DNA of 64,000 nucleotides. Origin: Cladosporium halotolerans. Lineage: Eukaryota. Numbering within the stretch: the first letter of the stretch is position 1; every line of letters begins with the position of its first letter. Under the pieces are notes generated by a model. That model worked only from the letters and a program-made list of their open reading frames with translations, ran no database searches and had not been told where the DNA came from. The position numbers were made by a program, and so were the translations under genes. The DNA is taken from NCBI RefSeq assembly GCF_011745625.1, contig NW_027191455.1, forward strand, positions 372,001 through 436,000. Direction: 5' to 3'. Positions 3,106-49,023 of this stretch are shown piece after piece.

Positions 3106-4089
3106 ATGGCTGCCGCTGACAACCATTTTCCTCTCCCGACTCGCGAGGAATTCCTCGCCAATCTTCAGCCAGTCACGAACGTTGCTGAGCTTGCGAGGGA
3201 TCACGACACCATGTGCGGCATCTGCATGAACAAGACCGTCAGCAAAGCTCGCAGAGAGCACGAGGAGCGTGCCGTAGTGCTACATGATAAGCATGTTTTT
3301 GGCGAGACCTGCATTCGCGAATGGCTCTCCGAGGCCAACACTTGCCCGAAATGCCGTGCCGTTCTATTCGAAGACAACCATGACTTGGATGACCTCGCGT
3401 TTTCGGCACCATTGTTCGTCAGCACTTACCGCTATACTATCGTTCGCTCGTACGTGGAGATCATCGAGGCGCTCAATGTCGGCACTGCGCTCGACGATCG
3501 CGTGGCGATGGATATTTACTTCAAGCTGGTCGATCAGTTAGACGAACTGCAATTGCCCCCCTATGATCGTTTCTTCCAAACCCTCAGGACTAGAGGGGAG
3601 GCTATGATCGCCGAGGCTCTCGAGACCCTTCGCGGGTTGCGTCTTCGCTGGTATCAGACCTTCCCAGCATCCCAAAACATCCCAGCCCTGCCAGTCTTCC
3701 AACTCGAAGACGAGGAACCGCTGCGCGGGAGTGATCCATCCGAACGTGTCCGTATCGACTTCGATTTCGGCGTGGACTCGGACTTCTTCAACCTCGTCTG
3801 GCACTCTGAGTTCTTAGCGGCGTTCGACCGCGATAGGACCTGCATGAGCCTTGCTGGGCACCCGCTCGCTCTCGTGGTACTTCAGCGGATGAATAGGGGT
3901 CTTGATCGCATGCGCCGTGGTGTTGTTAGGATCTCATATTTTCGCGAGACACTCCGTCGGGCAATTTACGATCCAGGTTTCGTCGGGCGACGGGAACTGC
4001 CTACGGGGTTCGATGCCTTCGTGGAGCACATACTGTATAAGGCTTGCCAGCACGCCTGGCTTTATCACTCGGTGCCTGAAAGCGTATAA
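3106..4089 (+). CDS. RING-finger domain protein (atypical RING-H2-like), putative E3 ligase
   Basis: 327-aa ORF with CGIC...HDKHVFGETCIREWLSEANTCPKCR; C/A-rich leader before the ATG. Confidence 0.8.
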   Translation: MAAADNHFPLPTREEFLANLQPVTNVAELARDHDTMCGICMNKTVSKARREHEERAVVLHDKHVFGETCIREWLSEANTCPKCRAVLFEDNHDLDDLAFSAPLFVSTYRYTIVRSYVEIIEALNVGTALDDRVAMDIYFKLVDQLDELQLPPYDRFFQTLRTRGEAMIAEALETLRGLRLRWYQTFPASQNIPALPVFQLEDEEPLRGSDPSERVRIDFDFGVDSDFFNLVWHSEFLAAFDRDRTCMSLAGHPLALVVLQRMNRGLDRMRRGVVRISYFRETLRRAIYDPGFVGRRELPTGFDAFVEHILYKACQHAWLYHSVPESV

Positions 4090-5059
4090 GCTGCGCTTCT
4101 GGTAGTGCGACTTGCTTTGATCTCTTTTCTTTCAGACAGGTATTCGATCGATGGCAGCGAGACCAGGAACAGGGTCGCGTGAGATAGCCCGGTCAATGCG
4201 GGCTCTCCAATCAAGCGTCCGGATTTTTGAATTTTTCTGACTTTTGAGGTATGACCGCTTGCTTATCGAGTGGTTGCTCATAACATACACATGTAATCGT
4301 ATTATTGCATCATGCATATTTTCCGTCAGAATCTACTATCAGTGCACACGAATTCACAGTATCATTTGAGCTTGTAATCGGTTATGCTTCAGGCGACCGG
4401 TCTGAGCCCGATTATCATCCCGTCCATTGAATTTTCTCATGGGGTATAACCGATAGCCCATGCCTTTCTGCGAGTCTACGGCGCAATAAGATGACTGCTA
4501 GTCGTAGATGTTGAAGCGTTCGGTTGTTCCGCTTGATGGAGCTCATGGGACTCTCCTATCTATGATCGTTTTTGAAGACATTCGATGGCCCTGTATCGAG
4601 ATGTACGATGACTCGGGCATGGCTGCAATGCATTTCGTCCAATTACCGAGAAAATGCGGCGACGTAGACTTACCCAAAGTCCCTCCAGATGCGAGCGCAT
4701 CCTCGGCCTAGTCGTATACTCAGACTTCATATGGCCTCAATAGCGTCAATGACGGCAACCAGATTGGCCCGAGCAGCAAGTATGAGGATATTGAATAGAA
4801 TCACTGGTAGGCAGAGGCTCAATGAAAAACTGTCAAACTTTTATGAATCGAATTTGAAGATGCGAGACGTCATTACTGTCACCGATAAAATGCATCACAC
4901 TGATCCGAACCATCGCGATAGGTGCTCTTAGCCGGTTTGAGTTCATACGTGATCAGCACCCTAGTGATATGCGGGTCCGCTTCACGAGCGGTGTTATGAG
5001 GCATTTCTCACATCAAGTCCCTCGTTTAGCTGCTATCATCGGTAATGTACAATAAATCG

Positions 5060-5930
5060 GGAAGGGCGCCAATGAGATGCTAGTGAGGAACCCGGACGCA
5101 ATTTCAATGCATCTCACCACTGAAAGTGCGCGTTGAGCTGCTACCAGCAGCAATCAACGTCTCAGAAAAAGACGTGCCAGTGAGAGACGCATTAACTCCC
5201 GTGAATTTGTCGCTAAGAGGTACTCTCCGGGGCGGATATGGTGCTACCAAGGGCTACCATCATCCTGAAGGGCGACACGCCAGGGAGAGAGCGGCGAAAC
5301 TAAGTGAGGGTTTTCTTCCGAGTCCGACCCTCTCTGCGACTCGCGTGGTGCTATCAACGGCGGTCGATACCTTGGGAGCCGACGCGCCAATGAGAGAGGC
5401 GAGCATCTCTGTAAATTTTCTCCAGTTTCCGCTGCTCAACGTGACTTCTATGATGCTACCATCAGAGTTCAAAGTTTCACAAGGAGAGGCGCCAGTGAGA
5501 GAGAAGCGAAGCTCTTGGGCATTTCTCCTAAGTCCAGCGCTCTCCGTGTCGCATGTGCTGCCACCAGCGGCTTTCGACGTCTCAGAATGAGACGCGCCAG
5601 TGAGAGAGCACGAAAACCTTTGAGAACTTCCTTCCAAGTCTGACGCTCTCCACATCACATGTGCTACTACCAGCAACCGTGGACGTGTTAGGAGGTGGCG
5701 CGCCAGCGAGAGACGCAAAAATGTCGAACAAAATCACCCCAAACCCTGTGCTCTCTGCGCCATAGTGGTACTACCAGCGGCTGAAGACACTTCAGAAAGG
5801 TACGCGCCAGTGAGAGAGGCGACAATCTCTGTGAGCATTCTTCTAAGTCCCCTGCTCTCTGCGCCTCATGTGCTGCTATCAGCGGCGCTATGACTTGGGC
5901 TGAGTCGGCATGTGCCTGAGATAGACGTGT
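5060..5930. repeat. Degenerate tandem array 1, ~105-bp unit, about 8 copies
   Basis: Motif CCA(G/A)(T/G/C)GAGA at 5069, 5177, 5280, 5387, 5492, 5597, 5703, 5807 (spacings 108,103,107,105,105,106,104). Second motif CTCTC(C/T)..N..GTG(G/C)TGCTA(C/T)CA starts 56-57 bp upstream of it. Confidence 0.9.
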
Positions 5931-6047
5931 TAGCAGTTGAGCAGTGGCATGTGAACACGACTTTCCTGCCATCACTTCTTGTAACCTGAGGAGTGAATTG
6001 CATGATCTTCACGTGCTGTCCGCACATGTGAATTTTAATTCATTACT

Positions 6048-7229
6048 TCAGTACTCTATCGCTGTCTTGATAGCATCGTAAACTCTCGTGACATCTGGGA
6101 TGTTGAACTTCTCATAAGCGAGGCCTGGGTGAGTGCTCCAGCCCGCAACCCTCTGAATCGGTGCCTCGAGACGCAAAAAGCAGCCCTCTTGTACCGTAGC
6201 AGCGACCTCCGCGCCAACGCCCGCGTTGACCATGCTCTCGTGCACTACTATCAGCTTGCCTGTCCTGTTCACGGAAGCCATCACTGTCTCGCGGTCCCAG
6301 GGGTAGATTGTGCGAAGGTCTATCAGTTCCACAGAGCATTTGAAGTCTCGTTCCGCTGCGGCGATGGCTGATGAGCACGTGTAGAGAGGTGTGCCGTAGG
6401 AGACGATGGTGACGTCTTTTCCAGGCTTCATTATCTCGGCTTTACTGAGGGGAAGTGTGTATGCTTCCGCTGGCACGTGCTCGACGGCTGCGCGGTAGAG
6501 GATCTTTGGTTCCAGCATTACCACGGGATCATTAGATTCGACGGCTGCGAGCAGCAGCCCCTTTGCTTGTGTAGGTGACCGAGGTACTACCACTCGTACA
6601 CCTGGGATGTGTGTAAACAAGGCCTCGGGAGATTGTGAGTGGTACAACGCGCCATGCCCGACGCCACCGCTCGGCATTCTGATCACCATGCCGCCACAGC
6701 TTTGCGATTCGGCGTTGACTCCGGCCCTGTAGCGGACCTTGGCGGCTTCGTTGACGATTTGGTCGAATGCTGGGTAGACGTAATCGGCAAACTGAATCTC
6801 TGCGATCGGACGCATTCCTTCCATTGCGGCTCCAATTGCAAATCCGGCGATACCCTGCTCAGTCAAGGGCGTGTTAAAGACGCGGTCTTCGCCAAATTCG
6901 TTCGCGAGATTCATTGAACAGCGGAACACGCCTCCGAACGCGACATCCTCTCCAAACAGCAACACACGCTGATCAGCATGGAGGGCATGTGACATCGCCG
7001 AATTGATCGCTTGGAAGAGATTCTGACGGTTGGTGGTGCCATTGCGGGCTTCGGATGATAGCTCCGGATTCGATAGGGCATCTTTCGAGGTGTGAGAGAG
7101 GACTGCGGTCGTGCTGAAATCCGTCGGGATATTTAAACGTGCTTTGGCTGGATGTGAGGCGTAGGCGCGACGCGTGATGAAGCTCGCACAGGCGCTGCTG
7201 AGGCGCGCCGGGCGGATGTTGTGGATCAT
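6048..7229 (-). CDS. BCKDHB: Branched-chain alpha-ketoacid (2-oxoisovalerate) dehydrogenase E1 beta subunit, mitochondrial
   Basis: GEDVAFGGVFRC, RVFNTPLTEQGIAGFAIG, AEIQFADYVYPAFDQIVNEAAK, GHGALYHSQSPE. Arg-rich presequence from ATG 7229 (MIHNIRPARLSS); intronless. Confidence 0.95.
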   Translation of the reverse strand: MIHNIRPARLSSACASFITRRAYASHPAKARLNIPTDFSTTAVLSHTSKDALSNPELSSEARNGTTNRQNLFQAINSAMSHALHADQRVLLFGEDVAFGGVFRCSMNLANEFGEDRVFNTPLTEQGIAGFAIGAAMEGMRPIAEIQFADYVYPAFDQIVNEAAKVRYRAGVNAESQSCGGMVIRMPSGGVGHGALYHSQSPEALFTHIPGVRVVVPRSPTQAKGLLLAAVESNDPVVMLEPKILYRAAVEHVPAEAYTLPLSKAEIMKPGKDVTIVSYGTPLYTCSSAIAAAERDFKCSVELIDLRTIYPWDRETVMASVNRTGKLIVVHESMVNAGVGAEVAATVQEGCFLRLEAPIQRVAGWSTHPGLAYEKFNIPDVTRVYDAIKTAIEY

Positions 7230-7864
7230 TGTCGCACCGCGTCGAATGCGGACAGCATTGATTCTGAGGAAAGGCACACAACAGGAGTGCAAAGGACTTA
7301 CATGAGATCTTAGGCGGCCCAAGAGGTGATGCTGTCGGCGGTTGCTATCGGCTTTGGGGCCCTGCAGCCTCGGTTACAGATGTCTCGAATGGCGGCTTAA
7401 GGATGTGGAAAGCAAAGGCTATTGCACCGTGGCGCGCATTTGAGCCGCAAGCCCCCCTGCGGGCTTGATGCCCGTCGCGACGCGATGTCACATGACCGTC
7501 ACGATTCCTGTGACCGTGAGGAATATTTAGGAAGTGAGGTCGGATGTCGTCGCGCCTCAGGCCGGACAGGCAGCAACGTAGCGGCAGGCACAGCGCCACC
7601 GGTGGCTCGTGTCAGAGAGCTTGGCGAGAGCTTCAAGCGGCAGGAAGGCGCGACCGACTTCGACTGCGCGCGCTTCACCCCCGAGCGTACAGATCGCCGC
7701 CGCATCAACTCCTTGTTGTTTCCCACCAAACACCGTCACCACCGCCCATCACCCTCACCACCTTGACCATCCCTCACACTCCTCACGGTTGACGACCACT
7801 TCTCCGACTCACGCTCCTTTCATCCCCACGATACCCCAGCTCCTCTTCTTCACGAACCGAACCC

Positions 7865-10187
7865 ATGGCTGCCGTATGTATCTATTGCGCCTGAGCCGCT
7901 GCCGCCATCATCGGAACCTCACTAACACTGCCGCTTAGCAACCTCCCTCCCAGCCCCGCGCCTACTCGCAAGCATACATTCCCAACGGTGCCGCCCAGCC
8001 TTCCGGCCCTGTGCCTGGTGCTAGGCCCCTCGACCCCAACCAGGGCCGCGTGCAGCAGGTTGGCCATGCTCGCGTGCTCTGCATAGCAGACGTCAGAGGT
8101 GGGCACATACTACCGTCGCAAGAATAAGAAGACGGAAGCTCATCTCGCCAACAGGACACCTGCGTCAGCTCAACGACCTTGCGCGCAACGCGAAGGCCGA
8201 CTACATCATTCACACCGGTGACTTTGGCTTTTACGATGAGACCTCGATAGAGCGTATCGCCGAAAAGTTCGTACATCTTGCCACTTGATTAAGTCACCTG
8301 GTGCTAACATCACCGCGCAGGACCCTTAAGCACGTTGCGCAATACTCCCCTCTCCTGACTGAGCCCGTCAAGAGCGAACTCACTCGCGCCGCCCCTCAGC
8401 AATCAGTCAAGGACCGCTTCCTCAGAGATCGCCTTCCTCTCTCTGAGCTTCCCCAATTCCTCAACAAGACCTACAAGCTCGAGGTACCTGTATACACTGT
8501 CTGGGGCGCGTGCGAGGATGTTTCGGTTTTGGAAAAGTTGCGCTCTGGCGAATACAAGATCGACAACCTGCACGTGATCGACGAATCGCACTCGAGATTA
8601 CTGGATGTTGGTGGCGTGAAGCTCCGCCTGCTCGGTCTGGGTGGAGCGGTGGTCATGCACAAATTGTTTGACAATGGCGAGGGCCGGACAACAATTGCTG
8701 GTGGCCAAGGCACCATGTGGACTACCGTTCTGCAAATCGGCGAGCTCATCGACACGGCGAATCGCGTATACGACCCCACGGAAACCCGCGTGCTCGTCAC
8801 TCACGCATCGCCTGCGAGAGAAGGTCTTCTGAACCAGCTGTCCGTCGCGCTCAAGGCTGATTTCTCCATCTCCGCTGGTCTGCACTTCCGCTACGGCAGC
8901 TCCTACAACGAATTCTCCGTCAACCCTTCGCTCGATCACTACCGCGGCAAGCTCGCCGCCTCGAAGGCTTCTTTCAATGATGTCTGGGAGACGGTCAAGA
9001 ATGAGGTAGAGCCTGCAGTCCAAGAGAACGAGGCACAGGGCAAGCTTCTGCAGCTGGCGGTCGATTTGGTTAGCAAGATGCCGGCAGTCGCTAGCGGCGG
9101 TAACCCGTTCGGTGGCGGACCCCAGACTGGCCAGGTGGATGAGAGCGCTTTCAAGAACATGTGGAACTTCAACCTCGCGGACGCGGCTTTTGGCTGGCTT
9201 GTTCTGGATATCGACCAAGGCCGCATCGGAACCGAGATGCGCGCTCAGGGCTTCAACTTCTCTCACCGCGGCAGCAAGAGACCTCAGGGCGTCCCTGCCG
9301 CGCCTTCCAATGCGACCGTCCCGCCGACCACCGGCAACCTGCCTACACCTGGTGGCCAGCAGCCTCCGATTGCTCCTCAGCAGGCCCGCGGCGCTCAGCA
9401 GCCCGTGATGAACCAGCCTCCTCAGCAGAGGGCCCAGCAGCCGCTCGCTGCCCAGCAACTTCAGCAGGCAGCTCAGCCCAGGCCCACCGGTCCCCAGCAG
9501 AACCCCGGCTCTCCCGCTCAAGGCCAGAAGCCCGCTACTCCCCAGCCGACAGGCCCCGCCCTCACCGCCAACGGCGCCACTGCTCCCACCGCAACCATCC
9601 CCGGCAAGGACGGCGCCCAAACCAACGGCACCGACGCCAAGCCCAGCCCCTCGCCCGCCCAGCAGCGCCCGGAGTCCAAGGGCATCTTCATCACGAACGT
9701 CTTCGACGTGCAGTCCTCCGACGACGTCAAGGCCCAACTTTTCACCCCAGAGGACGCCGCCAAGATCTCCAGCGTTGAGAAGACCGCCAAGGGCCCCTGG
9801 ATCGCCCACTTCGATACCCCGGAGCTGATGCAGGACGTCCTCTCCCGCTGCCCAAGCAAGGAGGCCCAGGAGAAGCACAAGGGCGTCCGCATGGCCGCTT
9901 ACAACCCCGTTGGCCGCGGCCGCGGCAACTTCGGCGGCGCCGGTCAGTGGGGTACTGGCCGCGGCGGGCCCAGCGCTCGTGGAGGCGCGGAGTCCCGCGG
10001 TGGCTACCAGTCTGCTGGCGGCGCCACGACCGGCAGCGACTCGGAGTCTGGCCGTGGAGGTCGCGGTAGAGGTCGCGGTGCGTTCCGTGGCGAGCGCGGA
10101 GGGCGCGGCGGCCGTGGCGGCCGCGGTGGCGCGAAGGCCGAGGGCGCCGCTGCTGCGCCGCCGCCTGCTGCCGGCGGCGACTCGTAG
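7865..10187 (+). CDS. Calcineurin-like metallophosphoesterase-fold protein with Q/P-rich linker, RRM-like region and RGG tail
   Basis: Spliced: MAA | intron 7874-7938 | ...RVLCIADVRG | intron from ~8099 | HLRQLNDLARNAKADYIIHTGDFGFYD...EK | intron to 8320 | long last exon. Motifs GDFG, VWGACED, THASP; C-terminal GRGGRGRGRG. Confidence 0.85.
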
Positions 10188-10859
10188 GTCGTGCTGCCGC
10201 CCGTGCAGGTTGTTCCGCGCGGCGCTTCGGCGCCCGGCAACATTAAGTGGTGAGCTTTGAGAGAAGGAAAAGTTTTTTTAGAGTGGCTTCGATTGGGGAG
10301 CCCTTTGTGTAAAGATTAATTCTCGAGGGTGGGCTTGAGTTCGTTTCATGGGATGCGAGGCGAAAGTGGAGAAGACAGCGAGGGGTGTGCTTGTGTCTGT
10401 GTGTGTGTTTGTCAATGGACTGACCGGAAGACGGGTTGATGAGCGTTAGTATACCCTCATTGCATTTTACACCTTTGTTGTTAGTAATCGCGCTCGATAG
10501 CAGAAAATCGGTTTTAAGAGTCAGTCAGCGCGTGGCTTTGCGTTTTGCGGCCTGTGTGGTTGTTTTCAAGCAAGCAGCAAGGTTCCCTAGTGATGAGATC
10601 CAAAGCGCCATCACTGGTGTCGCGCCGGTCTACTTCGAATCAGAGAATGTCATTCTGCACTCGGCTGCCCGGGACGCATCTGACCTTGCACTGCTGATCG
10701 TCCGACCGTTGCAGGCTCATGATGACTTGCACGCGCATCAAGATCTGGCAGCTTTTGGGAGAGACGCTTGCTGGTGCTATGTCGAAGGCAAGGATTGTTC
10801 GAGGTCAAGACCGGCCAGTGTCATGTCAGCGTCGAAGGACGTCCAATCCGCCGTCTACG

Positions 10860-13070
10860 CCCGGTGAGGTGGTGCTCACTGGTAAATCTGGTGACATCAA
10901 AACAGCTATGAAGATAGGAGTCGGCCAGACGTGTCAAGCTTGCATCTACAATTCTAAACGTGTAAGCACACTATGGTTCCCAGTGAGATGGCTCCAGTTC
11001 AAGAATCTCGATAGTACCTGCAAAAGAGCTTTTACACACAGGAGATCTCTTATTAGACGCATCGAGCTCACATCAACAACTTCAGGCACACAAGGTCACT
11101 TGCGCGCCCAGTGAGAGGGTGGATGGAGTTTCGTGAATATAGCTGTTGTTGCTTCGCTTGTCTTGCGACGTTATTTGCGGCACCAGATCTACCTACTCTC
11201 TGCAGGTCTTGCCCCTCCGCCTGAAGTTCTCGAGCCCATCTGGCCTACACTGCTGCTACGTTCTGCCGCATCGTTATCTCTCCCTTTCGAAGCACCTCAG
11301 CCTGCCAGCGGCTCCAATCTCCGCCTCTATGCTTGCTGTTTGTGGAAACGAGAGTAAATTGTGGCTGATTCAAATCCAGTGAGAGTATTTCTCCGTCGCG
11401 TAGCGCTCATATAAACATCCATGTATGCTCAATCCAGCTCGTGTCCCGTGCGATGGCATCGGTGTCGCCTCGCTTTTCTCAAAGTCAAGCGCAAAGACGG
11501 TATCTCGGTCGCGTCATGGTCATATCTTCGCTCATGGACGACTAATCCAGCTTGTGCCTGGTGAGACAGAACCGTTCTCACCTCGCTCTCCTCCGCTAAG
11601 AACCCGGCCGTCTTCCTAGTCTGTAGAGTCAGGAAGAACGCCGAGAATCTGCCTGAGGAGGTACATTGCTATATAAGTCAAACGAAGGGGCAGCGTCTCT
11701 CCGTCGCGTCGTGATACTATCGGCGCCTTCAGTTGTGAAAAGTCCGTGTGTCCAGTGAGTTTCTTTCACTACTAAGTAGAGAGCCGAGATGGCATCTCTC
11801 CGTCGCGTCGTGAACAGATCTTCGCCCACAGGACTCTAAACAAGCATGTGCCCAGTGAGACCGTACCCCTTCCGCCTCTCCATTGTCACCTAGTCAAGTC
11901 AAGGGATAGTGTCCCTCCGTCGCGTCGTGGTCATATCAGCAGCTCCAGGTGCAGAACCGGCCCGGTGCCCATTGAGACGACCTTGGATTCCACGAAAAAA
12001 TCCCACGAAATCAAAACAGAAGTACTATCTCTCTATCGAGTCATGGCCATACCAGCGTCTTTAGACATGAAAACGGTCCGATATCCAGTGAGATGATGCT
12101 GGTAGTGAGGAGAATATGTCACCAAAGCAATCATCTCTCCATCGCGTTGCGATCGTATCAACGCCTCCAGACATAGAACTGTGTGGGAGTCCAGTGAGAA
12201 ATATACCACAAGGCCAAGCTCAGAGCCGGTATCTCTGTGTCGCGTTGTGGTCGTATCGGCGGCTCCCGTTACAAAAGGGACCCCAACGTCCAGTGAGGGG
12301 TCTGAGATCTCACTGCATTTCTCGCCAAGTCAAGCGCAGAGAAAGCATCTCTCCGTCGCGTCGTTGTCATATCATCGACTTTATATATACAATTGGCGCG
12401 GTACCTAGTGAGAGGGTCTTGGAATCAACGAGAAACTTTTACTAATTCAAAAGCAAAGTCGTCATCTCTCCGTCGCGTCGAGCTCGTATCGTCAACATTA
12501 AGTGCAGAAATTGCTCCGCTGCCCAGTGAGGAGACATCTGCTTCAAACGAGAAGAATCCACCAAGTCAAACACAAGGTAGCATTCTCCGTCGCGTCGTGG
12601 TCATATCATCGGCTTCAGGTGTGAAAACGCCCATATCTCCAGTGAGATGTAGTCGGTTCTGGGGAATATTCGACCAGGTTAAGCTTCCCTCCGCCGCGTT
12701 GTGCTCACACCAGCCCCTCCAGACACAGAAACCGGCCTGTGACCAGCGAGAGCACTGGACCGATCCAGGCTCAGATCTTGCATCTCTCCGTCGCGTCATG
12801 GTCACACCAACGCCTTCGGACATGTAAGTGGCCCAGTGTCCAGTGAGACGGTGCTGGTTCCGCGGAGAATACTTCACCAAGTCAAACATGAAACAGCAGC
12901 TCTCCGTCGCGCTGTGGTCATACCAACGCCTTCAGGCGTGAACACGCGCAGGTGTCCAGTGAGATCGTGCAGTTTTATTTGCGGACCTTTCGCAAAGTCG
13001 AGCCTCTCTGCGTCGCGCTGTGGTCATACCAGCCGCTTCAAGTGCAGAAACGCACTTGAGCCCGGTGAAT
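10860..13070. repeat. Degenerate tandem array 2, 97-118-bp unit, at least 13 regular copies (11690-13070) plus decayed copies to the left
   Basis: CCAGTGAGA-like motif at 11752, 11852, 11969, 12085, 12191, 12290, 12405, 12523, 12639, 12743, 12840, 12956, 13062 (also 10861, 10980, 11108, 11376, 11558). ATCTCTCCGTCGCGTCGTGGTCATA-like motif lies 55-57 bp upstream (measured from CTCTC) of each regular copy. Confidence 0.93.
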
Positions 13071-13386
13071 GAGCGCTGTCAGACAGCTATATCGAGGCAT
13101 CCGTGTTCTGAGAATCAACGGCAATCATAGCGAAGAAGCAAGAGACATGAGAGTGGACAAGCAGAGTGATGCGTGTGAAAATGCTCGATTGCGTATATAC
13201 ACCCGTCGTCGCTCGGATCAAAATCGTAAACCCTTTCATCCGCTGTCATGATGCATACTCAACAAGAGGGAAAGGAAAAAATCATGAGACGAAGCCCGCC
13301 AGTCTGGATCTGCAAGCAACGGTACATCGAAAAAGGGACATAGAAGAAAACACCAACCCCCGCCAACAAGTAAACAACTTCCCCGC

Positions 13387-14886
13387 TTACTTGAAGTTGA
13401 CACCGCCAGTCGCGCCCTTGACGCTGACGGCGCCGATCGAGCCCTTGCGGATGTTCTCGACGGCGACGACGGACAGCCTCTTCTCGTCGTAGTGGACGGT
13501 GGACATGACGCCGCCGACGGCGCCGCCCTCGACGGACGTGGCGATGACGGCCTCGCTCTTGACGCGCAGGACGTGGAAGCCGTGGCGCGCCCAGTGGAAG
13601 GCGGTGTAGGCGAGGACGACGCAGAAGCCGACGAGGGGCACGAAGTAGGAGACGCGGGTGCTGACGGCGTCGGCGATGGCGCCCTGGATCGGGGTGAAGA
13701 CGGCCGCGCCGGAGACGCCCATGACGAGGATGCCGGCGCCGCGGCGGGTGTGGCGGCCGAGGTTGGCAGTACCGAGCGTGAAGAGAGTCGGGTACATGGG
13801 CGCCATAAAGAAGAAGACTACGATGAGGACGCCGACGCCGGCGTGGCCGGAGATGGAGCAGACGACGGCGTTCATGGCGATGGCGCAGACGGCGTAGACG
13901 ACGAGGAGGAAGTTGGACTCGAAGATGGAGGAGAGGCCGGTGGCGACGAAGCGGCCGACGGTGAAGGTGATGAGGGCGTAGGAGAGCATGCGGGAGCCTT
14001 CCTCCTCGTCGAAGCCGGCGTTCTCGGTCGCGTAGTTGATGAAGAAGGCAGCGCAGGCGACCTGGGCGCCGACGTAGCAGAACTGCGCGACGAAGCCGAA
14101 GATCATGTTGTACTGCTTGTAGAGCGGGCCGGCGCCGATGACCTCGCCGTTGCGGTCGACGGCGAGCTCGACGGTGGAGTCATCAACGACGGAGCCTCTC
14201 CTCTGCACGCCGGAGTTCTCGGCGATTTCGGGGAGCTTGGCGAAGAAGAAGAGGATGGCGACGGCGGCACCGAGGCAAGCGACCGCCAGGTAGACGTACT
14301 GCACGTTGGTGAGGTTGTTCTTGTTCTCGCCGGCGAAGAAGGCCTTGGAGGCAATGAGCGGGCCGATGAAGCTGGCAATACCGTTCCAGGACTGGCAGAA
14401 CTGGAGGCGGGTGGAGGCCCAGGCGGGGTCACCAATGACGACGGCGTAGGAGTTGGCAGAGGTCTCAAGAGTGGCAAGACCGCAAGCGATGACGAGGGTG
14501 CAGGCGCAGAAACCACCGAAGGAGGCAGAGGCGTTCTCGGGGCTGCTGAACTTGGCGGCGGGCCAGAAGAAGACGGCACCGAGCGAGTAGAGAATCAGGC
14601 CCATGATGATTGTGACTTTGTAACCCTTGCGCTTGAGGACCTCAGCGGCGACGGGAGAGAAGAGGAGGTAACCGCCACCGAAGTACATGACCTGGAGACC
14701 GGTCGATTCCAATCGCGTGATGCCGAGGACATTCTGGAAGTGCTTGTTGAGGACGTCGAGGAGACCGTAGGAGAAACCCCAGAGGAAGAAGAGAGAGGTG
14801 ACGAGGGCGAGGGGGAAGATCAGCTTCCTGCCAGTGAGGAAGCCACCCTCGACGGGGGCAGTGCTGATGGGGACACCACCGGCCAT
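13387..14886 (-). CDS. MFS sugar transporter, fucose:H+ symporter (FucP / glucose-galactose permease) family
   Basis: LVTSLFFLWGFSYGLLDVLNKHFQ, GLATLETSANSY, RLQFCQSWNG, AQFCYVGAQV; about 12 hydrophobic segments. Likely start MAGGVP at 14886. Confidence 0.92.
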   Translation of the reverse strand: MAGGVPISTAPVEGGFLTGRKLIFPLALVTSLFFLWGFSYGLLDVLNKHFQNVLGITRLESTGLQVMYFGGGYLLFSPVAAEVLKRKGYKVTIIMGLILYSLGAVFFWPAAKFSSPENASASFGGFCACTLVIACGLATLETSANSYAVVIGDPAWASTRLQFCQSWNGIASFIGPLIASKAFFAGENKNNLTNVQYVYLAVACLGAAVAILFFFAKLPEIAENSGVQRRGSVVDDSTVELAVDRNGEVIGAGPLYKQYNMIFGFVAQFCYVGAQVACAAFFINYATENAGFDEEEGSRMLSYALITFTVGRFVATGLSSIFESNFLLVVYAVCAIAMNAVVCSISGHAGVGVLIVVFFFMAPMYPTLFTLGTANLGRHTRRGAGILVMGVSGAAVFTPIQGAIADAVSTRVSYFVPLVGFCVVLAYTAFHWARHGFHVLRVKSEAVIATSVEGGAVGGVMSTVHYDEKRLSVVAVENIRKGSIGAVSVKGATGGVNFK

Positions 14887-17183
14887 TGTGTTGACCGCGG
14901 AGTGGAGAGTGTTGGAGTCGGGTTGAGATCGAAGTGTCAATCAAACGATGTCGGATGAGATTGTAAGATCAACGAGGGGATCCGGGGATTGAAGTAGTGA
15001 ACGGTGTCAACGATAGACTGGCTCAGACTCGGTTAACGAACGATCGAAGGCTTGAGCTGTGAGGAGGTGATTGATGTTGATTGGTTGTGATGGATGATAG
15101 TTCGACGATACATGAGGGGTGATCAGGCTGATCTTATACTGCGACGCACGAAGGCTCGCCATAACGGTGCTTGGCCGCATTGACTGGCGTTCAGCGTTCT
15201 GGTGCGAGTGAGGTCGTCTAGCAGCATGCAGACCTAGAGCCAGCCACGCGAAGGTTTGAGGCCAGGGTAGAGAGGCTCGGGCGCTAGAGCTGGGCCGTTA
15301 GCGCTTCCATGTGAGATCGCCGAAGTGCTGCCATGTCTAATCGGCCCGTATGTATGTGAAGGTAGGGCCAAGACAAGCGCACGCTAGCGGTGCACGGACT
15401 GCGTCTGACCTACCAGACGCTCCAGCCGGCGTCCAGGCTCGTCGCGTGCCGCGCCCACTGGTTTTGCCCATGGAGAAGCCGCGTTGGCACTGACACGATG
15501 AGGCTGCCACGGCCTGCCCACGGGGAAGTCTGCAGCCAGTTGAGATTGCGTTGGCGTCTCTCAGTGGGCCGTCACACTCCACCCCATGGCCTGTTGCGGC
15601 CTGCAGGCGCACGCCGCTGGGCGACGTCAGCAATGGCGAGCGCCCATGCTCGCCGGCCCCATCGAGACGATAGTGTGGTGGGTGGGACCGCGGAGACTCC
15701 AGATGGAGAGGCCACGTCCACATCCACATCCCCATGGGCGACGAGCGGCCGGGGAGGCAGACGGCCCCTCACTGTCGCCGCTGGCGGGTGGTGTGCGGTG
15801 CCTGTCTCGTGACACCCAGTCGGTACGTCAGTACATACTGCGACAGAGGTGAAGTCGCGATTGACTCGGCCAAACAGCGTCGTGACGCCACCGCCTCGAT
15901 CTACAGCCCTACGTCTGGGCGGCGCGCTGCGAGAGGCAGTCAAGCTCACGTGCCGGCGCACCTCCTCCACGAGCCCGCCAGCCAGCCAGCCAGCCGTCTC
16001 ACTGACTGCCGGGCGGCAGCTCGAGCGAGAGGTGAGGTGAGCTCGCGGCGCACCTCACGCTGGGCGAGCGCCACCGGCCGCCATCTCGACTGCCCGCACG
16101 CCTTCTAGCGTTCTTCTCGAAGCACAGCCCCAACGCCGCGTCTAGCATTGATCGGCCCTTCTGCACCTCCAGCCTAACCCCTCCCATCCTAGCTCGCATC
16201 ATCCTCCCATCTCCATCCCGCACCCCAGTCCCCGCGCTACCCCAGCGAGCAAGAAAGGCAACTCGTCTCCACGCCACGCCATCCCACTCGCAGCCCGCGC
16301 GCCGGCAACCCTCACCACAACTGATTAGATCACCTCACTACCGCCCGGAGCCAAGCCCCGCCAACCCTCACCCCAGGCCCGTGCCCGCGCTCTTGCTCCC
16401 CAGCCCATCAAACCCGGGCCCCCCCCAAGCCCTCACGCCCGCCCACCAAGCCCAACCCGCCGAGCCTCCGCGACTCTTGGTGCGCATCACCGTGATGCTT
16501 CAGCGCCAGCAGACCAGGGCATCGCTGGCCCCAACCGCGCGCTATGGCTTGCGGCGGCCTCGAGCGGCAGCGCTCGTGCTGAGCCCAGACATCAAGGCTC
16601 GCGCGCAGTGGGGTGCAGTGCAGAGCGGGTGGTCTGGTCTCGCGCGGCGGCGCGAGTGTCTGGCGTAGAGCGCGCGCAAGCGAGCGGTGAGCCTTGGAGG
16701 GGATGGGGAGCGCGTGCTGGGTGCGCGCGCGAACCTGGATGCGGTAGGTACAGCAGCCGCGCGTGAGGGATATTGGACCGGGTCGTAAGGCTCAACCGGT
16801 TTGATGTGCTGGTGCGGCTGCGAGGGGTCGGGTTTGCTAATGTGCGTCTCGAAGGTCTGGAGAATGTGGTCACTTGGGAGCGGCTGGGGGGACCGATGTC
16901 GGTAGCCCATGCCGTGGCGAGCGTTGTCTCGATGCTGTTGTTTTGCATCCGTGCTCGTACTTTCGCGCACAGAGAACTTTAGCGGCACGATCACTGAAGG
17001 GGGCCCAAAAAAAATTGTTCTTCGAGCGCGACGCGACTTGATGTCTCTCCGCCGTCCTGTGCGCGTCTGATCTGGCACCTTCAGTCGTCATGTCAGGTTG
17101 CCATTGAGAGATGCCGCGCTTCAAGATCGAGAAACTGGCCAGATGATTTGGTATTACATTTTCAAGAATATTACAACGTCCTC

Positions 17184-20125: not shown

Positions 20126-20150
20126 AACCTAACCCCAACCCTAACCCTAA
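20126..20150. repeat. Short interstitial telomere-like tract (CCCTAA variants)
   Basis: aacctaa ccccaa ccctaa ccctaa, between the convergent FMP52 and TRA1 3' ends. Confidence 0.5.
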
Positions 20151-20918: not shown

Positions 20919-23900
20919 CTACAACCAAGGCATCCAAAGCAGATCCATCTGCGCCAGCTTCTCCGGATTCGTCGCCTTGGCGACAAAATCGACGACGCTC
21001 TGGTTGGCGGGCAGATTGTTCGCGCCCGGCTCGCGCGCGAGCGCCAGCGCGCGGTTGACGACGGCCTCGGCGTTGCGCTGCACGTTCTCGCGCAGCTCGT
21101 TCTGCTGCAGCGATTGGCGGTGCGAGGTCGTGTACCAGAAGGTGAGCTCGTCGCGGATGAAGATGCTGAGGGCGTGCGAGAGCTCGCAGCTGGTCGGGTT
21201 GTCTGGCGCGGTGGGCGGCGCGGCGGAGGTCGAGGCGTTGGGCTGCTGCGGCGTGGCGCTGCTGGCGGGCGTGCTGGTGGTGTTGTTGCCGCTGCCGCTG
21301 CTGTTGTTGGTCGTGCTGTTGGTGGAGCCGTTGGCCTGTCCTGATGCTGGAGCTGCAGGAGGGGGAGTCGGCGCGACTGTGCTGTAGGAGCTGTCTGCTG
21401 TCAGGCAGCGGGCGATGGCCATCAGAGCGCAGGTGAAGATGCCCTCCTGGTGAATGGGACCCATGAGCTTTTGCAGGTTGGGTGTCAGGCGGAAGGGCAC
21501 AGCTTCATTATTATTGTGGAAGAGCGGACGAGTGGTCGAGAGCTGAGGAAGAAGCTCAGAACCCCAAACATTGCCGTTGCGACGAGCGATGGAGAGCTTG
21601 TTCGGGTAACGCTGAGTCATGTACATCGTGTAAGTGATGTATGTGAGCGCAGCCATCTGGTATGAGAATTGACGACGGAATAGCCAGAAGGCGTCGAAGC
21701 TCGGGAAAGTCCTGGCAAAGTACTCGCGCACAAGGTCGGTGGGTACGTAGCGCTGCTGGATGTAGTTGAGTGCCTCGAGGCGGACGTTGGGGAACTGGTC
21801 TTGCTTCTGCGCCGTGATCGAGCGCATCTTCTCCATAGTGAAGATTAAAGGCTCGTCTTTGCTCATCTCGTTGCGGCGGCAGTAGTCCTCGTAGACACCT
21901 TGCAGCGTAATGTAAGATGCATCATCCTGGATCATGCGAATCTGCGGCGACAGCGGAACCATGACCGGAAGGTGGAACTGCAGGTTGCGCCTGCGGCTCT
22001 CCTTCTTCTTAGCCAGCGTAGCATTGAACATGCGGAACAGCTGGAGGATGCGCTCCTCACGCCTGCTGTGCCTGGGCGCCGGGTGCTGGACAGCGAATGG
22101 GTGCACGCTACCGTCATGACCACGAATCTTGATGCGGCGGTGGCAGTTGGCGACGCCACGCACAAGGTCAACGATAGGCAGGAAACGTTCAATTCTAATG
22201 AAGTCCTGATTCTTATCGCGATGCTGCAGGTACTGCCCAGGAACCTCGACCTCATCGAACCAGACGAAGCGGAATCCGCTCAAATGCGGGACCTGGTCGA
22301 GGTGGAAAGTCGAGGGACGGCGGTCGAGGCGCTCAGCCAGCTTGTCGCGCCATCTGCGAAGCTTCTGCATGTACTCGCTCATGGTTGGTTTCTTAGACAC
22401 AAAGTCCTGCTCGAAAGATTTGCGAATGTGATGCGGCAGGATGGACTCCGCGAAACGAGTGATGTTGGCCTCGGTCTGGGGCGGGAGCTTGCTGTTCTCG
22501 TTGAAGGCGTGCGGCGAACGGCTCACGTAGTTGAGAGCGTCGTTCAGAAGTGCTACTATGAGCCTGTAGGCGTCCTCGTCTGGCGGGCACTTGAAGTACT
22601 TCTGGATCTGCTCGACCATAGCCTCCATAGAAGCGTACAGGAGCGGGAAAGCCGTGCGGAGAGTGATGACGAGCGCTTCGGTGTGCTCCCATGGCTTGCG
22701 TGGCCTCGGTGGCTCAGCAGGTGTAGTAGCAGCATTGGCGTTGGTATTGTTGTTGCCAGGTGTGGCGTTGGCGCCGTCTTGCTGCGACTGCTGCTGTTGA
22801 TTGCCCTGCTGTTGGTTGCCCTGCTGTTGCTGAGTCTGTTGCTGCGCCTGCCCTTGCTGAGATTGCTGTTGCGGCTGCTTCGGCGTACCATCAGCAGAAC
22901 CATTTGCCTGGTTCTGCTCGCCGCCAGAAGTAGTCGGCCTGGAAGCACCCTGGCTATCCGGCCTGGCGGGAGAACCTTCCTTCTTGACGGCATCACCGCC
23001 CGCCTGCTGCTGCTGCGATTGCTGCTGCGCTTGTTGCTGAGCCTGCTGCTTCGCCTTGAGCGCCTTCTCCTTCTGCTCCTTCTGCATCTGCCCGCGGCGG
23101 ATGACCTGCATATCCTCGTGACTCGTGCGCAACTGGAAGTGGAGCGCCTGCGGGTACGTCTTGGCGAGCTTCGCGAGAATCTCCTGGGAGATGTTGGCCT
23201 CTCCCTCGCTGCGGGACAAGTTGTTGAGCAGCTGCGGAATGAAGCTGACCCAGTACCACAGCGGGGTCTCGCCCTTAAAGTTGTTGTACGTCTTGGCCAG
23301 CGTGCCCTCGGGATCGTCCAAGCTGAGCAGCCACAGGATGCGGCTGAGCAGCTTGCGCGACTTGGCGCTCTTGTACTGTCCGGCGGCCTCCAGGTAGCAG
23401 CTGATGGCATTACCAGCCAGCTCGAGATCGTTCGGGTCTTCTTTAAAGAGCTGGTCACTGTATCTACCCCACTCGGCCCAGGCCTTAGGCAGCTTGATGT
23501 CGAAGAACAGGGCGGTGCCGAAGGCGTCCTGCGCGTCCTCTTTCTGGCTGAGCTTGCTAAGGAACATGCCTTTGAGGGTGTAGAATTCCGCCTTCTGCTG
23601 CGGGCCGAAGTAGTTCAGATTGGTATTGTTAATAACGTCCAACCCGCTCGTCAGCTCGCTCCTGTTCTGGTAGTGGCACTTGGCCTGCTCGCGCAGCTTG
23701 AGGAACGCTTCTTGAATCTCGATGTTCGGCAGCGTGTAGATCTTGCTAAGCTGGTTGATGCAGACCTCGGGCATCTGGTGCTTGCGAGCAACGTGAGCGA
23801 AACGGTTGATGATCCAGGCCGTCTCGTGGTACCCGCGGTAAGCGTAGGAGTTGCCCGTCGCATTGCCCGTAGTGGCAGGCAGAAGGTTGAGGTAGGTACC

Positions 23901-26900
23901 GTTGATGAGCTGGAAGATGTGCTGACGCCACGTAACCAAGTCCTGCCAGGCATTGATGTCGTCCCAAAGGTTGGGGAGACGGTCACGCCAAGTGCTCAGC
24001 AGAACCTTCAGCTCCTGACTCTTGACATCCAGGTTGCCAGCGTTTGTCTGAGCCAAGCTCGAACAGATAACGCTAGCATCGTGCAACTCCACAAGCTGCT
24101 GGAAGTTCTGCAGTAAAGTAATATGCGCATTGGTGATGCGGCGCGGCAGCTTGTGCCAGTTCTTGATGGAGAGCTGAATATTCTCATCGCATACGCGAGC
24201 AAAGTCCGGCGGCGTCTCTGTCTTGTTGTGCAATTTGAGCAGCGACATGAACGCCTGGAAGAACATGCGCCTGGGCGTCGGAGCATCGGAGACGGCCTTG
24301 ACGATACTGTCGAGCTGCTCGCGCTGCTCTGCGCTATTCCAAGCCTCGAAGTTGCGCCACATGGCTTCCAGGTAGAGGTCGTTGATGTTCTCGTGCTTCG
24401 CGAAGTCGCCCAGGATCTCCCACTGCTGCAGCTTCTGCGCACATTGGACCCATTGGTCTTCCCAGAGCATGTACTCGCCCTGAGAAAAGGGCAGAGAGCC
24501 AGTGCGAGCCTTGACTTGCGCCATCTCGTACATCTGCTGCGCCTTGTCCCAGATGCCGTTCTGCTCGTAGGACAGAGCAGCGTTGGTCTCAACGAACTGA
24601 GAGCGCCTGCGCCAAGTGCCGTAGAAGAGATCGCTCTCCTCGAGTCTAGCGTAAAGCTCAGTGAGGGCGTCGAGATTACTCTCCTTAACAGTCGGCATGT
24701 CGATGACAGGGTTGATCGCCACGTTTTCCATAAAAGTCGTAGCGGTGTACCACGCATCGTAATTCTGCGCAAGGAACTTCATGACATGCGGCGGGAACTT
24801 GCAGACCGGCTTCGCGCGAGCGATACCCTCAAGAAGTGTCGACACGCAATTCGGGCGCTTGTCGATCTGCCTCTGGTGCATGTCCTTTGTCAGGAGGGAA
24901 ATCAGACCCTGCTCGATATCTTCCCTATCGTCTCTGGACAAGACAGACCAGCACATTGGGAAGTACGCTACCCAAACATCGTGCGCCAGCTGCCAGTCGG
25001 TGTGCTGCAAATCGGACAGCGGGACGAGGATGTCCTTGGCCTTAACGCTGCCGACATCGACCATGAACTGTCTCTCACTGGCGATGAGGCTCTCAAATTT
25101 ATCGTCGAGCATCAACTCCGCAGCCCTCGAATCGCCGCTGTACGTGCCGTAAATTCTCGACGCAGCCATACAAGTGAAGTCGTCCTGGTGCAAACGCAAG
25201 TTCGTACTCTGATCGATCGAGCCAAACATAAGCTGAATGATTTGGCTGAGCCAGAAGCTGTCGCCCAGCACTTCCCACTGCTGCTCGGAGATGAGCTTGA
25301 AGAAGCGGTTGCTGGTTGACCTGCTGAGGGCGCGGTCGAAGATCGTCATGAAGCGCTGCCTCATCTCGATGTCCGGGCTACGGAGACCGATGAGGAAAGC
25401 CTGCTCCATGCGGACGGCGAGCTCGGAGCGGAAGATCTTGGGGTCCTCATAGATGCGGATAACGAGGTTCATGAACTTGGCGTACATAGTGTTGTCCGCT
25501 CGGGTCTCGAAGAGGAGCATCTTCTGCAGCACCGCCGTCTTCTCCTTGAGGGTTGGCACGGGTTCGGTCGGGTTGAAGACCCATGCCTCGACTTGGCTGA
25601 GGATTTTCTCGCAGAGCTTGTTGTCGTTCGACCGCTCAACGAGAGAAGCGAGAACGCTCAAATATGGTCTCCTGCGATCGGCCAATGCGCTGATACATCC
25701 CGACAGCATGTCAATAGTCTTGATGATGAGATTGACAATGACCTCGGACTCCTGCGCGCTAGGCAGATTGGAAGCCTGAAGTCCCTGAGCCGCAGCAGCT
25801 TGAGGGGGCAATTGCGAGCTGAGATGATCCTTTGCCAACTTCGTCTGGAAGGTCTTGAGCAGCGCCTCAATGTGAGGATGGATGTCCTCCGACTTGCGCT
25901 GTGCAAGCGTCCAGAGGATGTTGATACCAGCAATGTGGCTGCCGTTATTCAGAGCGTCGCTGGCGGTCGTGTTGAGGAAAGTCTTGAACTCTTCCGGCGG
26001 GCTCTCGGCATCAGGCAGCTCATCATCAGGCTGCTGCAGGGGAATGACCTCCAACGCGCGGTGCAAGATAGGCGGCAACTTCGGCGACAGGTTCTCAGGG
26101 AGGTCAATGCCGTGCAGCGCCTCCTGAATCTCGAGATTCTCGTTTTTCAAGGGACTAGTGAGCAGCTTCTGCAGCTGCGGTAGACGAGCGACGACCCACT
26201 CATCAGATCTAGAGTTGAGAAGCACCTTCAAGATCTGGATGGTGTTGATGATCCTCGTAGTCCAAATCTCCGCCTTCTCCTCCGGCTTCTGATCAGTGCA
26301 CAGGATCTGCTCCGTGACCTTGGGGAACATGGCGTCCACGTCAAGGTCATCCCACAACGGAGGGGATAGCAGCTTGTAAAGCAGATCGACTGCCTTGACG
26401 ACAGTGTCAGTAGGAGGCGGGTGTATGCTGTGGTGGGAGTGCGGCTGATCCGCGTTCTTAGGAGCTGAGACGGGGTACCGCTCAGGGACCGTCGCAATGA
26501 ACTGCACCAGGTACTTGATGAGCATGAGTCTCATGGGAGCCTGCGCGAGCGCGCCTCGCTTGCCCTGGCTTTGCGGCGAGCCAGCTCTGTCTGCCGAAGG
26601 CGACTCGGCACCCGCAAGCGAACCCTGCTCCCGGACTGTGCGCTCTTCCCATTTGCAGAGGAGTCCGATCAGGTTCAGAGCCAGCTTCCTGTTCTCGCTC
26701 GACGTGTTCGGAAGCGAAGCCACCTTGTTCATCGACGGGATGATAGTCTGCGCAAAGCCCTCGCGCGCTTCGTAGAAGAGATCAGGATGCCTGACCAGGA
26801 AGTGGTAAATGCTGGTCAGCTGCGCGATATTCGAAATCTCTTCGCTAAGAATGCGGCGCGGTAACTTCGACCACATCGCTTGTCTGCCATCAGTACCCCC

Positions 26901-32692: not shown

Positions 32693-33485
32693 GGCGCGCT
32701 GGCAAGAAGTGTAATGCGCCTGGAGATGGTGAAAGAAGACGCGCTATCGCATTACGATGCTGATATATTCCACCGACAAGGCTGATCGCGTGCCAGGTAT
32801 GTGGCGGTAGCCCTCAGGCTCCAATGTGGTGCGCGGCAATGAGTGGTCGTGTGAAGCCGTCGGTTGCTAGAATTGCGGTTGTGCAGGCGTGTCGCGCGAG
32901 GCAGCCAGTGAGATGAGTCGGATAGATGAGGCGATCGAGTAAACGAGGAGCACGGCACAGTAAAGTGGTGCTGTAGTGAGGGGTAGTCGGGTGGAGGTGG
33001 TGCGACCGCAAGGCTGCGCGGGTGTAAGGTGAAGGTGGGAGAGTGCCGCAAGTGTGCAGCTGGTAGGATTGGGTGTGCCTTCACGCGCGCAAAGCGAGCC
33101 TCTCTCCAAAAGCTTCCGACGCGGCGATGGCCAGGTGAAAGAGCCGGCAACTAATGCACGGCGTCCCGCTCCGCTGCGGCCCCAGCATGGAAGACGGGCC
33201 GTTTGACGCTAATCACGGACGGGCTGATCCCCTCGGGGTAATGATCGTCATCTTTCGCTCACAGAACAGAGCCGGTGAGCTAGAACGTGCTCTGTGATGG
33301 TATAGAACATGTCCTATGATACAAATAGATAGCATGTGGATGGCGAGAGTGGAGGGCATTCTAGTGAGATCAGATGAAACTAAGACGAAACACAGAGCAG
33401 CCCACAGCTTGCTCGCGAGATCTTTTTCTTAAACGTTTAGAGCATAAGCTTTCACTATCACACCAAAGAGACCCATCGTCGTCAT

Positions 33486-46856: not shown

Positions 46857-47556
46857 TCAAGACACCGAACGTTTCAGCTTTTCACCAATTTGCCTTTTTT
46901 GATTGTCTTTGAGTCCAACACTGCGGCTCAGCTGTTGAGAGGTGGCCATTTGAGTAAGATACTCGAGCATCAAGTCTTTGCTGCAGCAATGCTGATGGCT
47001 TTTCAAGCTCTTGACCATCTTGGTAAGGGTGAGGTTGGATATCATCTCAAGAATCAGCGTGCGTAATGGGGAGTCGTCGGGTGTAGAGGACCAAACAAGC
47101 TCAAAAGCGTGTAGGCCTAGGGCTACTTTGTCGTTTATCCACCTTGAGATTGCACGGTCGATGACCGCATTGCAGAACTTTTGGTCACCAAGATAATCTC
47201 CCAAGATGTAGAGCCGGCAAATCTGAAACCCTACATCCGGCTTGCTGGCGAATGTGATTTCACTGGTGTAAAGCCACTGCAGATAGCCTTCGAAGCAGCC
47301 TTCATCGTGCTCAGATAACTCTACCCGGCTTGTGCAGCCTTCTTTCCAGCATTTGGCCAGAGCAGCCTGGAAGTACTTCGAAGAACGAGTCGCTATGTTC
47401 TTGTGGACGGTGAACTCTTTTTCTGTTGGCCCAACTGAGACGGTGAAAGTCTCTGTCATATTGAGACTACTATCGTTAGCTATGCATGACGCTAGGTGCA
47501 GCCAGATTCTAGATGCTGTATGCATACCGTTGGCGCTTAGTATGCGGTTCTGCCAT
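46857..47556 (-). CDS. BTB/POZ domain protein (copy 1)
   Basis: MAEPHTKRQR | intron ~47467-47527 | LNMTETFTVSVGPTEKEFTVHKNIATRSSKYFQAAL...FEGYLQWLYT...LYILGDYLGDQKFCNAVID. Confidence 0.88.
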
Positions 47557-48624: not shown

Positions 48625-49023
48625 TGCAAGAAGGGCTGCTCGACTGTGTACGGGTGTACTGGTGGTGTAGAGTGTAAGTGAGGGTGGTGGGAGAGAGGGT
48701 AGCAAGAGACAAGGTGGCGGGAGAAGTATGACAGATGCAACCCGAACGGGAGGTAGTCATCCACACTATACCAAGGTATTCAGTAAAGTGACAATGAGCC
48801 AGTGCCATGTGTGCAGTATTTCGCGCCACGTGAATGCCGGATGAGACGTAAATGGCCATCTTGTGTACGCTTGCCCACCAGGCTTTATTCTAATCGTTGA
48901 TTCAGTGTGTTCAAAGAACATAGCCTGGCTCACAACGTAGAGGACATCGAGTGGAGAAGAAATGCCGAGCTCAGATGCTGTCAACATGCACACTAATAAG
49001 TGTCATTCAGTGCTGCCATAGCC

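Follow-up and report, generated by a model that had tools for sequence, protein, structure and literature searches.

Genomic setting and composition of the two arrays

The window considered here is a stretch of 64,000 nucleotides (nt) from Cladosporium halotolerans (NCBI RefSeq assembly GCF_011745625.1, contig NW_027191455.1, positions 372,001 to 436,000 of the forward strand), and all coordinates are counted from its first letter. It consists of gene-dense fungal DNA with housekeeping families, as assigned by Pfam, and two of its gaps between converging genes are occupied by tandem arrays of a single repeat unit, which is hallmarked by two short motifs termed box B and box A. Array 2 separates a RING-finger gene (+) from a pyruvate dehydrogenase E1 beta-like gene (-) and adjoins the 3' end of the latter, and array 1 is located between a DUF2433 gene (+) and an MFS transporter gene (-); the divergently transcribed E1 beta and DUF2433 pair is thereby flanked by an array on either side. 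These arrays very probably represent an old, noncoding, satellite-like tandem repeat with conserved boxes. The features concerned are as follows.

3106-4089, + strand: RING-finger gene, which faces the converging E1 beta gene on the other side of array 2
~5003-5915, + strand: array 2, about nine units of 103-108 base pairs (bp), of the same family as array 1
6048-7322, - strand: pyruvate dehydrogenase E1 beta-like gene (Pfam)
8301-10187, + strand: DUF2433 and fungal RRM-like gene (Pfam), just upstream of array 1
10864-11378, + strand: degenerate 5' part of array 1, three units of 119, 128 and 268 bp
11379-13064, + strand: well-formed core of array 1, 15 units that all carry box B and box A, with an invariant AA about 17 nt ahead of the latter
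12581-12610, + strand: example of box B (CATTCTCCGTCGCGTCGTGGTCATATCATC), repeat family D3, one of 14 copies within 11387-13033
12639-12647, + strand: example of box A (CCAGTGAGA), its CCA ending 58 nt after the TCTCC of box B
13387-14940, - strand: MFS transporter gene (Pfam), converging on array 1 from the right

A first-pass annotation, made from the letters alone, had described positions 10,860 to 13,070 as a noncoding array of at least 13 two-motif units. Both boxes, their + strand orientation and the unit lengths were confirmed. Box B (TCTCCGTCGCGTCGTG, up to three mismatches) is matched 15 times in the window, with 14 of the matches falling between 11390 and 13022, all on the + strand, against a chance expectation of 1.01 for the window; none of 100 shuffled sequences reached 15. 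Box A (CCAGTGAGA, at most one mismatch) is matched 41 times where 18 were expected, including 15 + strand matches in 10980-12964 (array 1) and eight in 5069-5815 (array 2), where the box takes the extended form CGCGCCAGTGAGAGAG. The 15-unit core is continued upstream to about 10864 by degenerate units, in which box A is retained (10980, 11108, 11376) and box B has decayed; neither these units nor array 2 had been described. The two arrays measure 2.2 kb (array 1) and 0.9 kb (array 2).

The scan with an nhmmer model of the unit, which the annotation had proposed, recovered both arrays in the 64-kb window: 22 full and four partial units were found, all on the + strand and all confined to the two arrays, with no single copy outside them in the 64 kb and none inside a gene. 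The arrays therefore consist of head-to-tail copies of one unit on one strand, as in satellites and minisatellites. They were also recovered by a repeat search (families D1-D5), while array 1 went unreported by Tandem Repeats Finder because its units are too diverged. A gapped pattern of B followed by A was further searched in metagenomes, where the 46 loci found carried one match each and no array of B and A, and these were dismissed as chance matches.

The near-invariant distance from B to A was borne out, as 12 of the 15 core units measure 58 nt between the first letter of TCTCC and the last letter of CCA, and the other three measure 57, 59 and 59 nt. Measured from box A to box A, the spacings from 11752 onward are 100, 117, 116, 106, 99, 115, 118, 116, 104, 97 and 116 nt, which reproduce the annotated unit lengths exactly; the last annotated value, 106, depends on a degenerate box A copy at about 13062 (CCCGGTGAA). 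An insert of about 79 nt that does not belong to the unit interrupts array 1 at 11561-11640 and contains an imperfect inverted repeat (GTCTTCCT...AGGAAGAAC).

Conservation along the unit

Apart from a few boxes, the units are by now hardly more alike than shuffled sequence would be, with global pairwise identities of 55-75% against 56% for shuffled units under the same scoring. The mean pairwise identity within array 1 is distributed very unevenly over the unit:

Extended box B (alignment columns 61-92): 0.74
Box A: 0.77
Segment between B and A: 0.47
Linker, first part: 0.28
Linker, second part including CACCAAGTCAAGC: 0.46

The CACCAAGTCAAGC block itself reaches about 0.7 in the per-column table, and the AA pair that precedes box A by about 17 nt varies little or not at all. 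The conserved parts, which are kept by both arrays, thus comprise a CpG-rich box B of about 30 nt, the AA, a box A of 9 nt and the AAGTCAA block. The linker had been thought to keep nothing but AAGTCAA, a statement that was too narrow, as a GAGAA..TTTC..CACC block is retained there as well. Short boxes are accordingly conserved above the rest of the unit, as in arrays of protein-binding boxes.

The contention that the units did not decay uniformly was upheld when per-column conservation was compared with simulated neutral decay, a check that had been suggested along with it. The spread of column identities (standard deviation 0.233) is larger than in any of 1000 simulations that were run at a uniform rate on the tree of the units themselves (maximum 0.213), while the number of columns with an identity of at least 0.85 shows no excess over the simulations (20 against a simulated mean of 18). 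Moreover, the conserved columns are clustered, with the best 16-column window of array 1 reaching 0.81 against 0.70 after permutation (p=0.0002), and the same column permutation gives p=0.018 for array 2. The consensus sequences of the two arrays differ, yet the same positions are kept: the array consensuses agree at 27 of the 37 columns that are conserved in array 1 and at 16 of the 42 that are variable (Fisher p=0.003), and the conservation profiles of the two arrays correlate (Spearman 0.26, p=0.009).

Repeat-induced point mutation was rejected as the cause of these islands. Among departures from the unit consensus, the ratio of transitions to transversions is 1.08, and CpA sites in array 1 are not preferentially changed (0.15 against 0.10-0.13 in other contexts).

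Unit length classes and turnover

The units of array 1 fall into long (113-118 bp), medium (104-106 bp) and short (97-100 bp) classes, which follow one another as L L S, L L M S, L L L M S and L M, and a four-unit higher-order pattern of long-long-medium-short can be discerned. Medium units share the loss of a segment of 10-11 nt before box B, and short units share a loss of about 20 nt after box A. Since the classes recur in the higher-order pattern, the linker variation can be traced mostly to two old, copied indels plus small later ones. The linkers are thus variable in length, as had been stated, but in three recurring classes that go back to a few inherited events rather than to many independent ones. 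In array 2, the 10-11 nt segment that precedes box B is missing from every unit, and the units are closest to the medium units of array 1, which shows that array 2 derives from the medium-length unit type.

Contigs of related sequencing runs, here X1 to X3, were compared with the window; their RNA origin is only guessed, and they are called complementary DNA (cDNA)-type contigs below. One difference in X1 and X2 concerns a whole unit:

12440-12583, + strand: stretch in place of which contigs of X1 and X2 have 26 other letters (contig comparison)

The replacement amounts to a net loss of 118 bp, which corresponds to one long unit fewer in X1 and X2 and would turn the third block of array 1 into L L M S. 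Arrays of this family therefore gain and lose whole units and blocks, and the combination of a unit number differing between relatives with a higher-order pattern is characteristic of satellites.

Divergence from related contigs

The share of other letters in X1 relative to the window was taken from contigs of similar depth and is as follows.

Array 2: 13.9%
Array 1: 8.4% and 12.0%
Promoter/intron stretch 7530-8060: 2.1%
DUF2433 coding part: 2.8%

In run X2, three GT..AG joints of the DUF2433 gene were observed, which revealed that spliced cDNA is present. One X2 contig (5202-7245) runs unbroken from the E1 beta coding region into array 2, and a relative's cDNA-type contig that starts in the DUF2433 gene reaches the degenerate part of array 1, to 11052. 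The body of array 1 is covered by separate low-depth X2 contigs only (6.5, 10.3 and 2.6, against 305 and 505 for gene contigs); contig depth cannot rank expression, and no conclusion is drawn from these values. Run X3 contributed just a GT-rich microsatellite word (10381-10417) and one fragment of 188 nt.

Several observations on the same contigs are added here. The related-run contigs 7680-11052 and 5202-7245 terminate in sequencing adapter, at 7680 and 7245 respectively, and transcripts may start at these points. The contigs extend about 865 nt past the DUF2433 stop codon and about 846 nt past that of E1 beta, and such 3' regions would be unusually long in a fungal genome this compact, except if transcripts that overlap had been merged. 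In addition, 92 nt of the DUF2433 3' region (10535-10628) are replaced by 79 other letters in a related cDNA-type contig, which constitutes a divergent segment just upstream of array 1.

A possible two-part DNA site or a functionless satellite

Several separate boxes in fixed order, kept by two arrays of different consensus, favor the existence of something that reads the boxes, and a DNA-binding reader is the simplest choice because an RNA fold is lacking and the arrays are oppositely oriented to the neighboring transcripts. A putative bipartite protein-binding site is the most economical reading. A sequence-specific factor would contact the boxes and read the DNA as a two-part site; the repeated site would act as a multivalent platform between converging transcription units, with a role of the boundary, termination or roadblock type, and the array would be maintained by unequal exchange together with short gene conversion. 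The mechanism by which the boxes serve as a binding platform for such a factor is possible but rather doubtful, whereas the statement taken as a whole, of a satellite-like repeat whose boxes are read as a two-part DNA site between converging genes, is advanced tentatively and with somewhat better prospects. In its most specific form, the arrays would be orientation-fixed multivalent platforms, with B and A 58 nt apart, that mark or insulate the junctions of converging polymerase II genes, which is unlikely on present evidence.

The foremost alternative is a functionless old satellite, the boxes of which would have been kept by short-tract, possibly GC-biased, gene conversion or by unequal exchange, with the collinear CpG-rich part being homogenized more than the indel-bearing linkers. 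It may be the right explanation, even if it is a minority view here, and a number of results that weigh against the two-part site speak for it. The arrays differ by 8-14% from the related contigs, compared with 2-3% for the flanking genes and the promoter/intron stretch, and most of the array must therefore evolve fast. Changes between orthologs are not depleted in the conserved columns of array 2, where seven of 28 inferred changes fall in such columns against 32% expected (p=0.27). That comparison relates to one open reading frame (ORF) call of 154 residues in array 2, which differs at 25 residues and hence by a minimum of 28 base changes; conserved columns were those with an identity of at least 0.6 (32% of sites), and the test covers non-synonymous changes only and has low power. 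The same ORF contains four copies of box A, of which two are not identical in the two genomes, and the comparison does not show ongoing constraint in array 2. Furthermore, neighboring units tend to share box B variants across length classes (0.757 for adjacent pairs against 0.736 for all pairs, p=0.054), as illustrated by GCGCTGTGGTCATACCA in the units at 12843 and 12959, which are adjacent, differ in length type and share this derived variant; such sharing hints at conversion rather than selection. Also in favor of a functionless satellite, the edge units are the most decayed, as in satellites evolving in concert, and copy number varies among relatives.

Three further points tell against a two-part site. 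The contrast between fixed spacing and variable linkers is weaker than it appears because the linker classes are inherited within the higher-order repeat; box B as a lone site in the 64 kb is represented by just one chance-level match; and one cDNA-type contig traverses seven units of array 2, which does not fit a strong roadblock there.

The conversion-driven account has its own difficulties, in that conversion from a single hotspot predicts one gradient of conservation, while no fewer than four conserved blocks were seen, which stand apart from one another in a fixed order, and arrays with different consensus keep the same positions. The adjacency signal is also marginal and is absent for box A (p=0.42). 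Fast divergence, the null result of the ortholog test and the sharing between neighbors nevertheless make a neutral, conversion-driven explanation nearly as likely as a two-part DNA site.

Possible action at the RNA level

A further possibility is that the arrays act as RNA, as a platform for an RNA-binding protein, as decoys resembling 5' splice sites (CCA|GTGAGA) or as a precursor cut into pieces of about 75 nt. Such a role is improbable, although the arrays are represented in X2, the run with spliced cDNA, by contigs over both of them, one of which links array 2 to the E1 beta coding region. The first-pass annotation had itself offered a processed multi-unit noncoding RNA, and an RNA of this kind, structured or processed, was not supported. 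RNAalifold gave no pairs for array 1 or for both arrays combined on either strand, and just -1.5 and -4.3 kcal/mol for array 2 alone. None of 17 single-unit folds was unusually stable relative to shuffles (z-scores from +1.41 to -1.20); nine of them are closed by a CUCUC/GAGAG helix, which is short with only four to seven pairs, and the segment between the boxes folds slightly better than its shuffles (mean z -0.62, p=0.04), an effect driven by three units. Rfam yielded no match at the gathering score and none when 4800-13300 was searched with E values of up to 10; for one 101-nt unit it returned just two chance-level archaeal C/D matches (E 4.5 and 5.5), and ARAGORN found no transfer RNA (tRNA). 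The units thus belong to none of the known structured RNAs compared (Rfam families, tRNA, 5S and small nucleolar RNA), and no conserved structure with covariation marks them as a new family.

The unit also has a splice-like appearance. Box A reads as an exon end followed by a GTGAG donor (CCA|GTGAGA), while a run of pyrimidines and then AAG close the linker. The 'introns' so defined would measure 36-40 nt, mostly with no CTAAC-type branch site, whereas real introns here are 54-65 nt long with branch sites of the CTAAC or CTCAT type, and three of seven donors in array 2 are not GT. No GT..AG joint was found inside either array in any contig, including the X2 contigs 5202-7245 and 11300-12066, which remain unspliced, though the same run displays the three real introns of the neighboring gene. 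The two arrays also face the neighboring transcripts in opposite senses.

Possible relics of genes or introns

That the units are the relic of a multi-exon repeat-protein gene, or tandemly copied intron-like elements, is very unlikely. The fixed length from B to A would suit an exon, and box B in the frame SLRRVVVIS displays some variation that looks synonymous, but this best frame has stops in five of 15 units. A conserved AG|TC acceptor gives exon lengths of 62-78 nt, which do not keep the frame, and an in-frame exon results in three units alone (11855, 12088 and 12293). Six-frame reading of both arrays disclosed no frame kept through the units, and no 3-base periodicity of variation was detected. 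The codon log-odds, trained on ten genes of the window, lie between -0.15 and -0.37 per codon in all six anchored unit frames, in contrast with +0.36 to +0.42 for real genes. Two array ORFs have no protein match among 5.8 billion sequences, and a third has a single match among 1.84 billion representatives, namely the 154-residue ORF call of a near relative, which is 84% identical. A repeat-protein gene, whether as a single ORF or with one exon per repeat, was therefore rejected for want of a kept frame and of codon bias, and the assertion that no frame is maintained agrees with the exon lengths, the stops and the negative codon scores. The arrays are noncoding, as expected of a satellite.

For the intron-like variant, the unit can be read as GTGAGA...CCAG, which places a donor, the AA and an acceptor in intron-like order, and introner-like elements occur in Dothideomycetes (PMC4457414). 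However, two intron models, one on the plus strand (GTGAGA..AAG, 36-40 nt) and one on the minus strand (about 64 nt), were rejected, as they keep no frame and are unlike real introns. No likeness of the unit to the sequences printed in PMC4457414 was recognized by eye, with no alignment being made, and the published elements described there carry strong GTAAGT, GCTAAC and TTTCAG signals. With no copy inside a gene in the 64 kb and no GT..AG joints in the arrays, the units were not assigned to the introner-like elements.

Derivation of the units from a polymerase III gene (tRNA- or 5S-like), with the boxes as remains of an internal two-box promoter, is more improbable still: the block from B to A has tRNA length with a short closing helix, some linkers contain T runs, the GCGTCGTGGTCA part of box B looks like a tRNA A box or D arm and several short words of the unit are reminiscent of fungal 5S ribosomal RNA, but these are resemblances only, unsupported by models, as ARAGORN reported no tRNA, the Rfam tRNA and 5S models were empty even at E up to 10 on the single 101-nt unit, box A is unlike a B box, and the 5S-like words stand in another order than in 5S.

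A transposon origin (subterminal repeats, a miniature inverted-repeat transposable element or a Helitron) was likewise rejected. The repeat search found no inverted repeat flanking either array, Pfam found no transposon genes in the window and no dispersed copies occur there, in line with the annotation's remark that no transposase or terminal repeat is nearby.

Comparison with known systems

The closest counterparts are satellites with a protein-binding box. Alpha-satellite is composed of monomers that carry the 17-bp CENP-B box. Like such satellites, the present arrays consist of head-to-tail noncoding units with a higher-order pattern and a copy number that changes between relatives, and their monomers are unevenly conserved, with short boxes kept across diverged units and across arrays. 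On the other hand, they are very small (0.9 and 2.2 kb), are embedded in gene-dense housekeeping DNA rather than in centromeric or heterochromatic blocks, and possess at least two boxes at fixed spacing; the likeness to CENP-B may be one of analogy. Tandem repeats that share a 19-bp box are also described for Meloidogyne (PMC8097292).

With minisatellites that share a core, the arrays have in common the range of unit size, unit turnover by unequal exchange, a conserved core and an occurrence at more than one locus. Classical minisatellites have shorter units (10-60 bp), which are much more alike, whereas the units here are longer and, except in the boxes, close to saturation.

Arrays of terminator or fork-barrier sites are exemplified by the Sal-box/TTF-I repeats of ribosomal DNA (rDNA), the Reb1 roadblocks and the RTS1 repeats of fission yeast. 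Several copies of a protein site follow closely behind genes in these, all in one orientation, and the present arrays may be analogous in their position between converging genes rather than show an established likeness of sequence; one cDNA-type contig crosses most of array 2.

Introner-like elements (PMC4457414) resemble the units in their fungal class, in unit lengths of about 100 nt and in intron-like ends (GTGAG...CAG). They are dispersed single copies in genes, have strong canonical signals and are spliced, whereas the array units are tandem, intergenic, weakly signaled and unspliced in the contigs. A literature search on the motif strings, on fungal minisatellites and on repeats between convergent genes returned nothing relevant.

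Other features of the window

The DUF2433 protein has its best named relatives in Dothideomycetes (Hortaea, Teratosphaeria, Baudoinia and others), with 66-74% identity over most of its length, in keeping with a host of this class, and unnamed relatives reach 90%. The 5' end of its gene harbors three GT..AG introns, at 7874-7938, ~8097-8152 and 8267-8320 (65, 56 and 54 nt), with the branch sites CTAAC, CTCAT and CTAAC in this order, and the real start codon must therefore lie upstream of the long ORF at 8301.

Further Pfam families in the window include AATF, Tra1, glycogen synthase, USP7 and other housekeeping genes. The Tra1 homologue (20919-32705, - strand) is a single unbroken ORF of 3928 codons, from which it follows that many genes here have few or no introns. 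About 770 bp past its 3' end, an interstitial telomere-type repeat is situated at 20128-20150 (CCTAAC in 3.8 copies, TTAGGG on the other strand). Between 47256 and 49437, a 39-nt stretch occurs in three copies about 1070 bp apart, which are 62-77% alike and lie within or beside ORFs with no Pfam match (46857-47525 and 47988-48764); they may mark a small tandem gene family.

Biological significance

Few tandem repeats are found in the gene-rich DNA of filamentous ascomycetes, in which repeat-targeted mutation tends to destroy repeats. A repeat whose units are nearly unrelated, yet which preserves the same boxes and spacing in two arrays, is a candidate cis element. If the arrays do mark the junctions of converging genes, they would be a polymerase II counterpart of the terminator and fork-barrier arrays of rDNA and a small 'functional satellite' in gene-dense DNA. 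If they are neutral, they would serve as a warning that conservation islands of fixed geometry can arise in higher-order repeats with no function. The arrays could in addition become a small, tractable model of how boxes persist in satellite DNA, whether by selection or by conversion.

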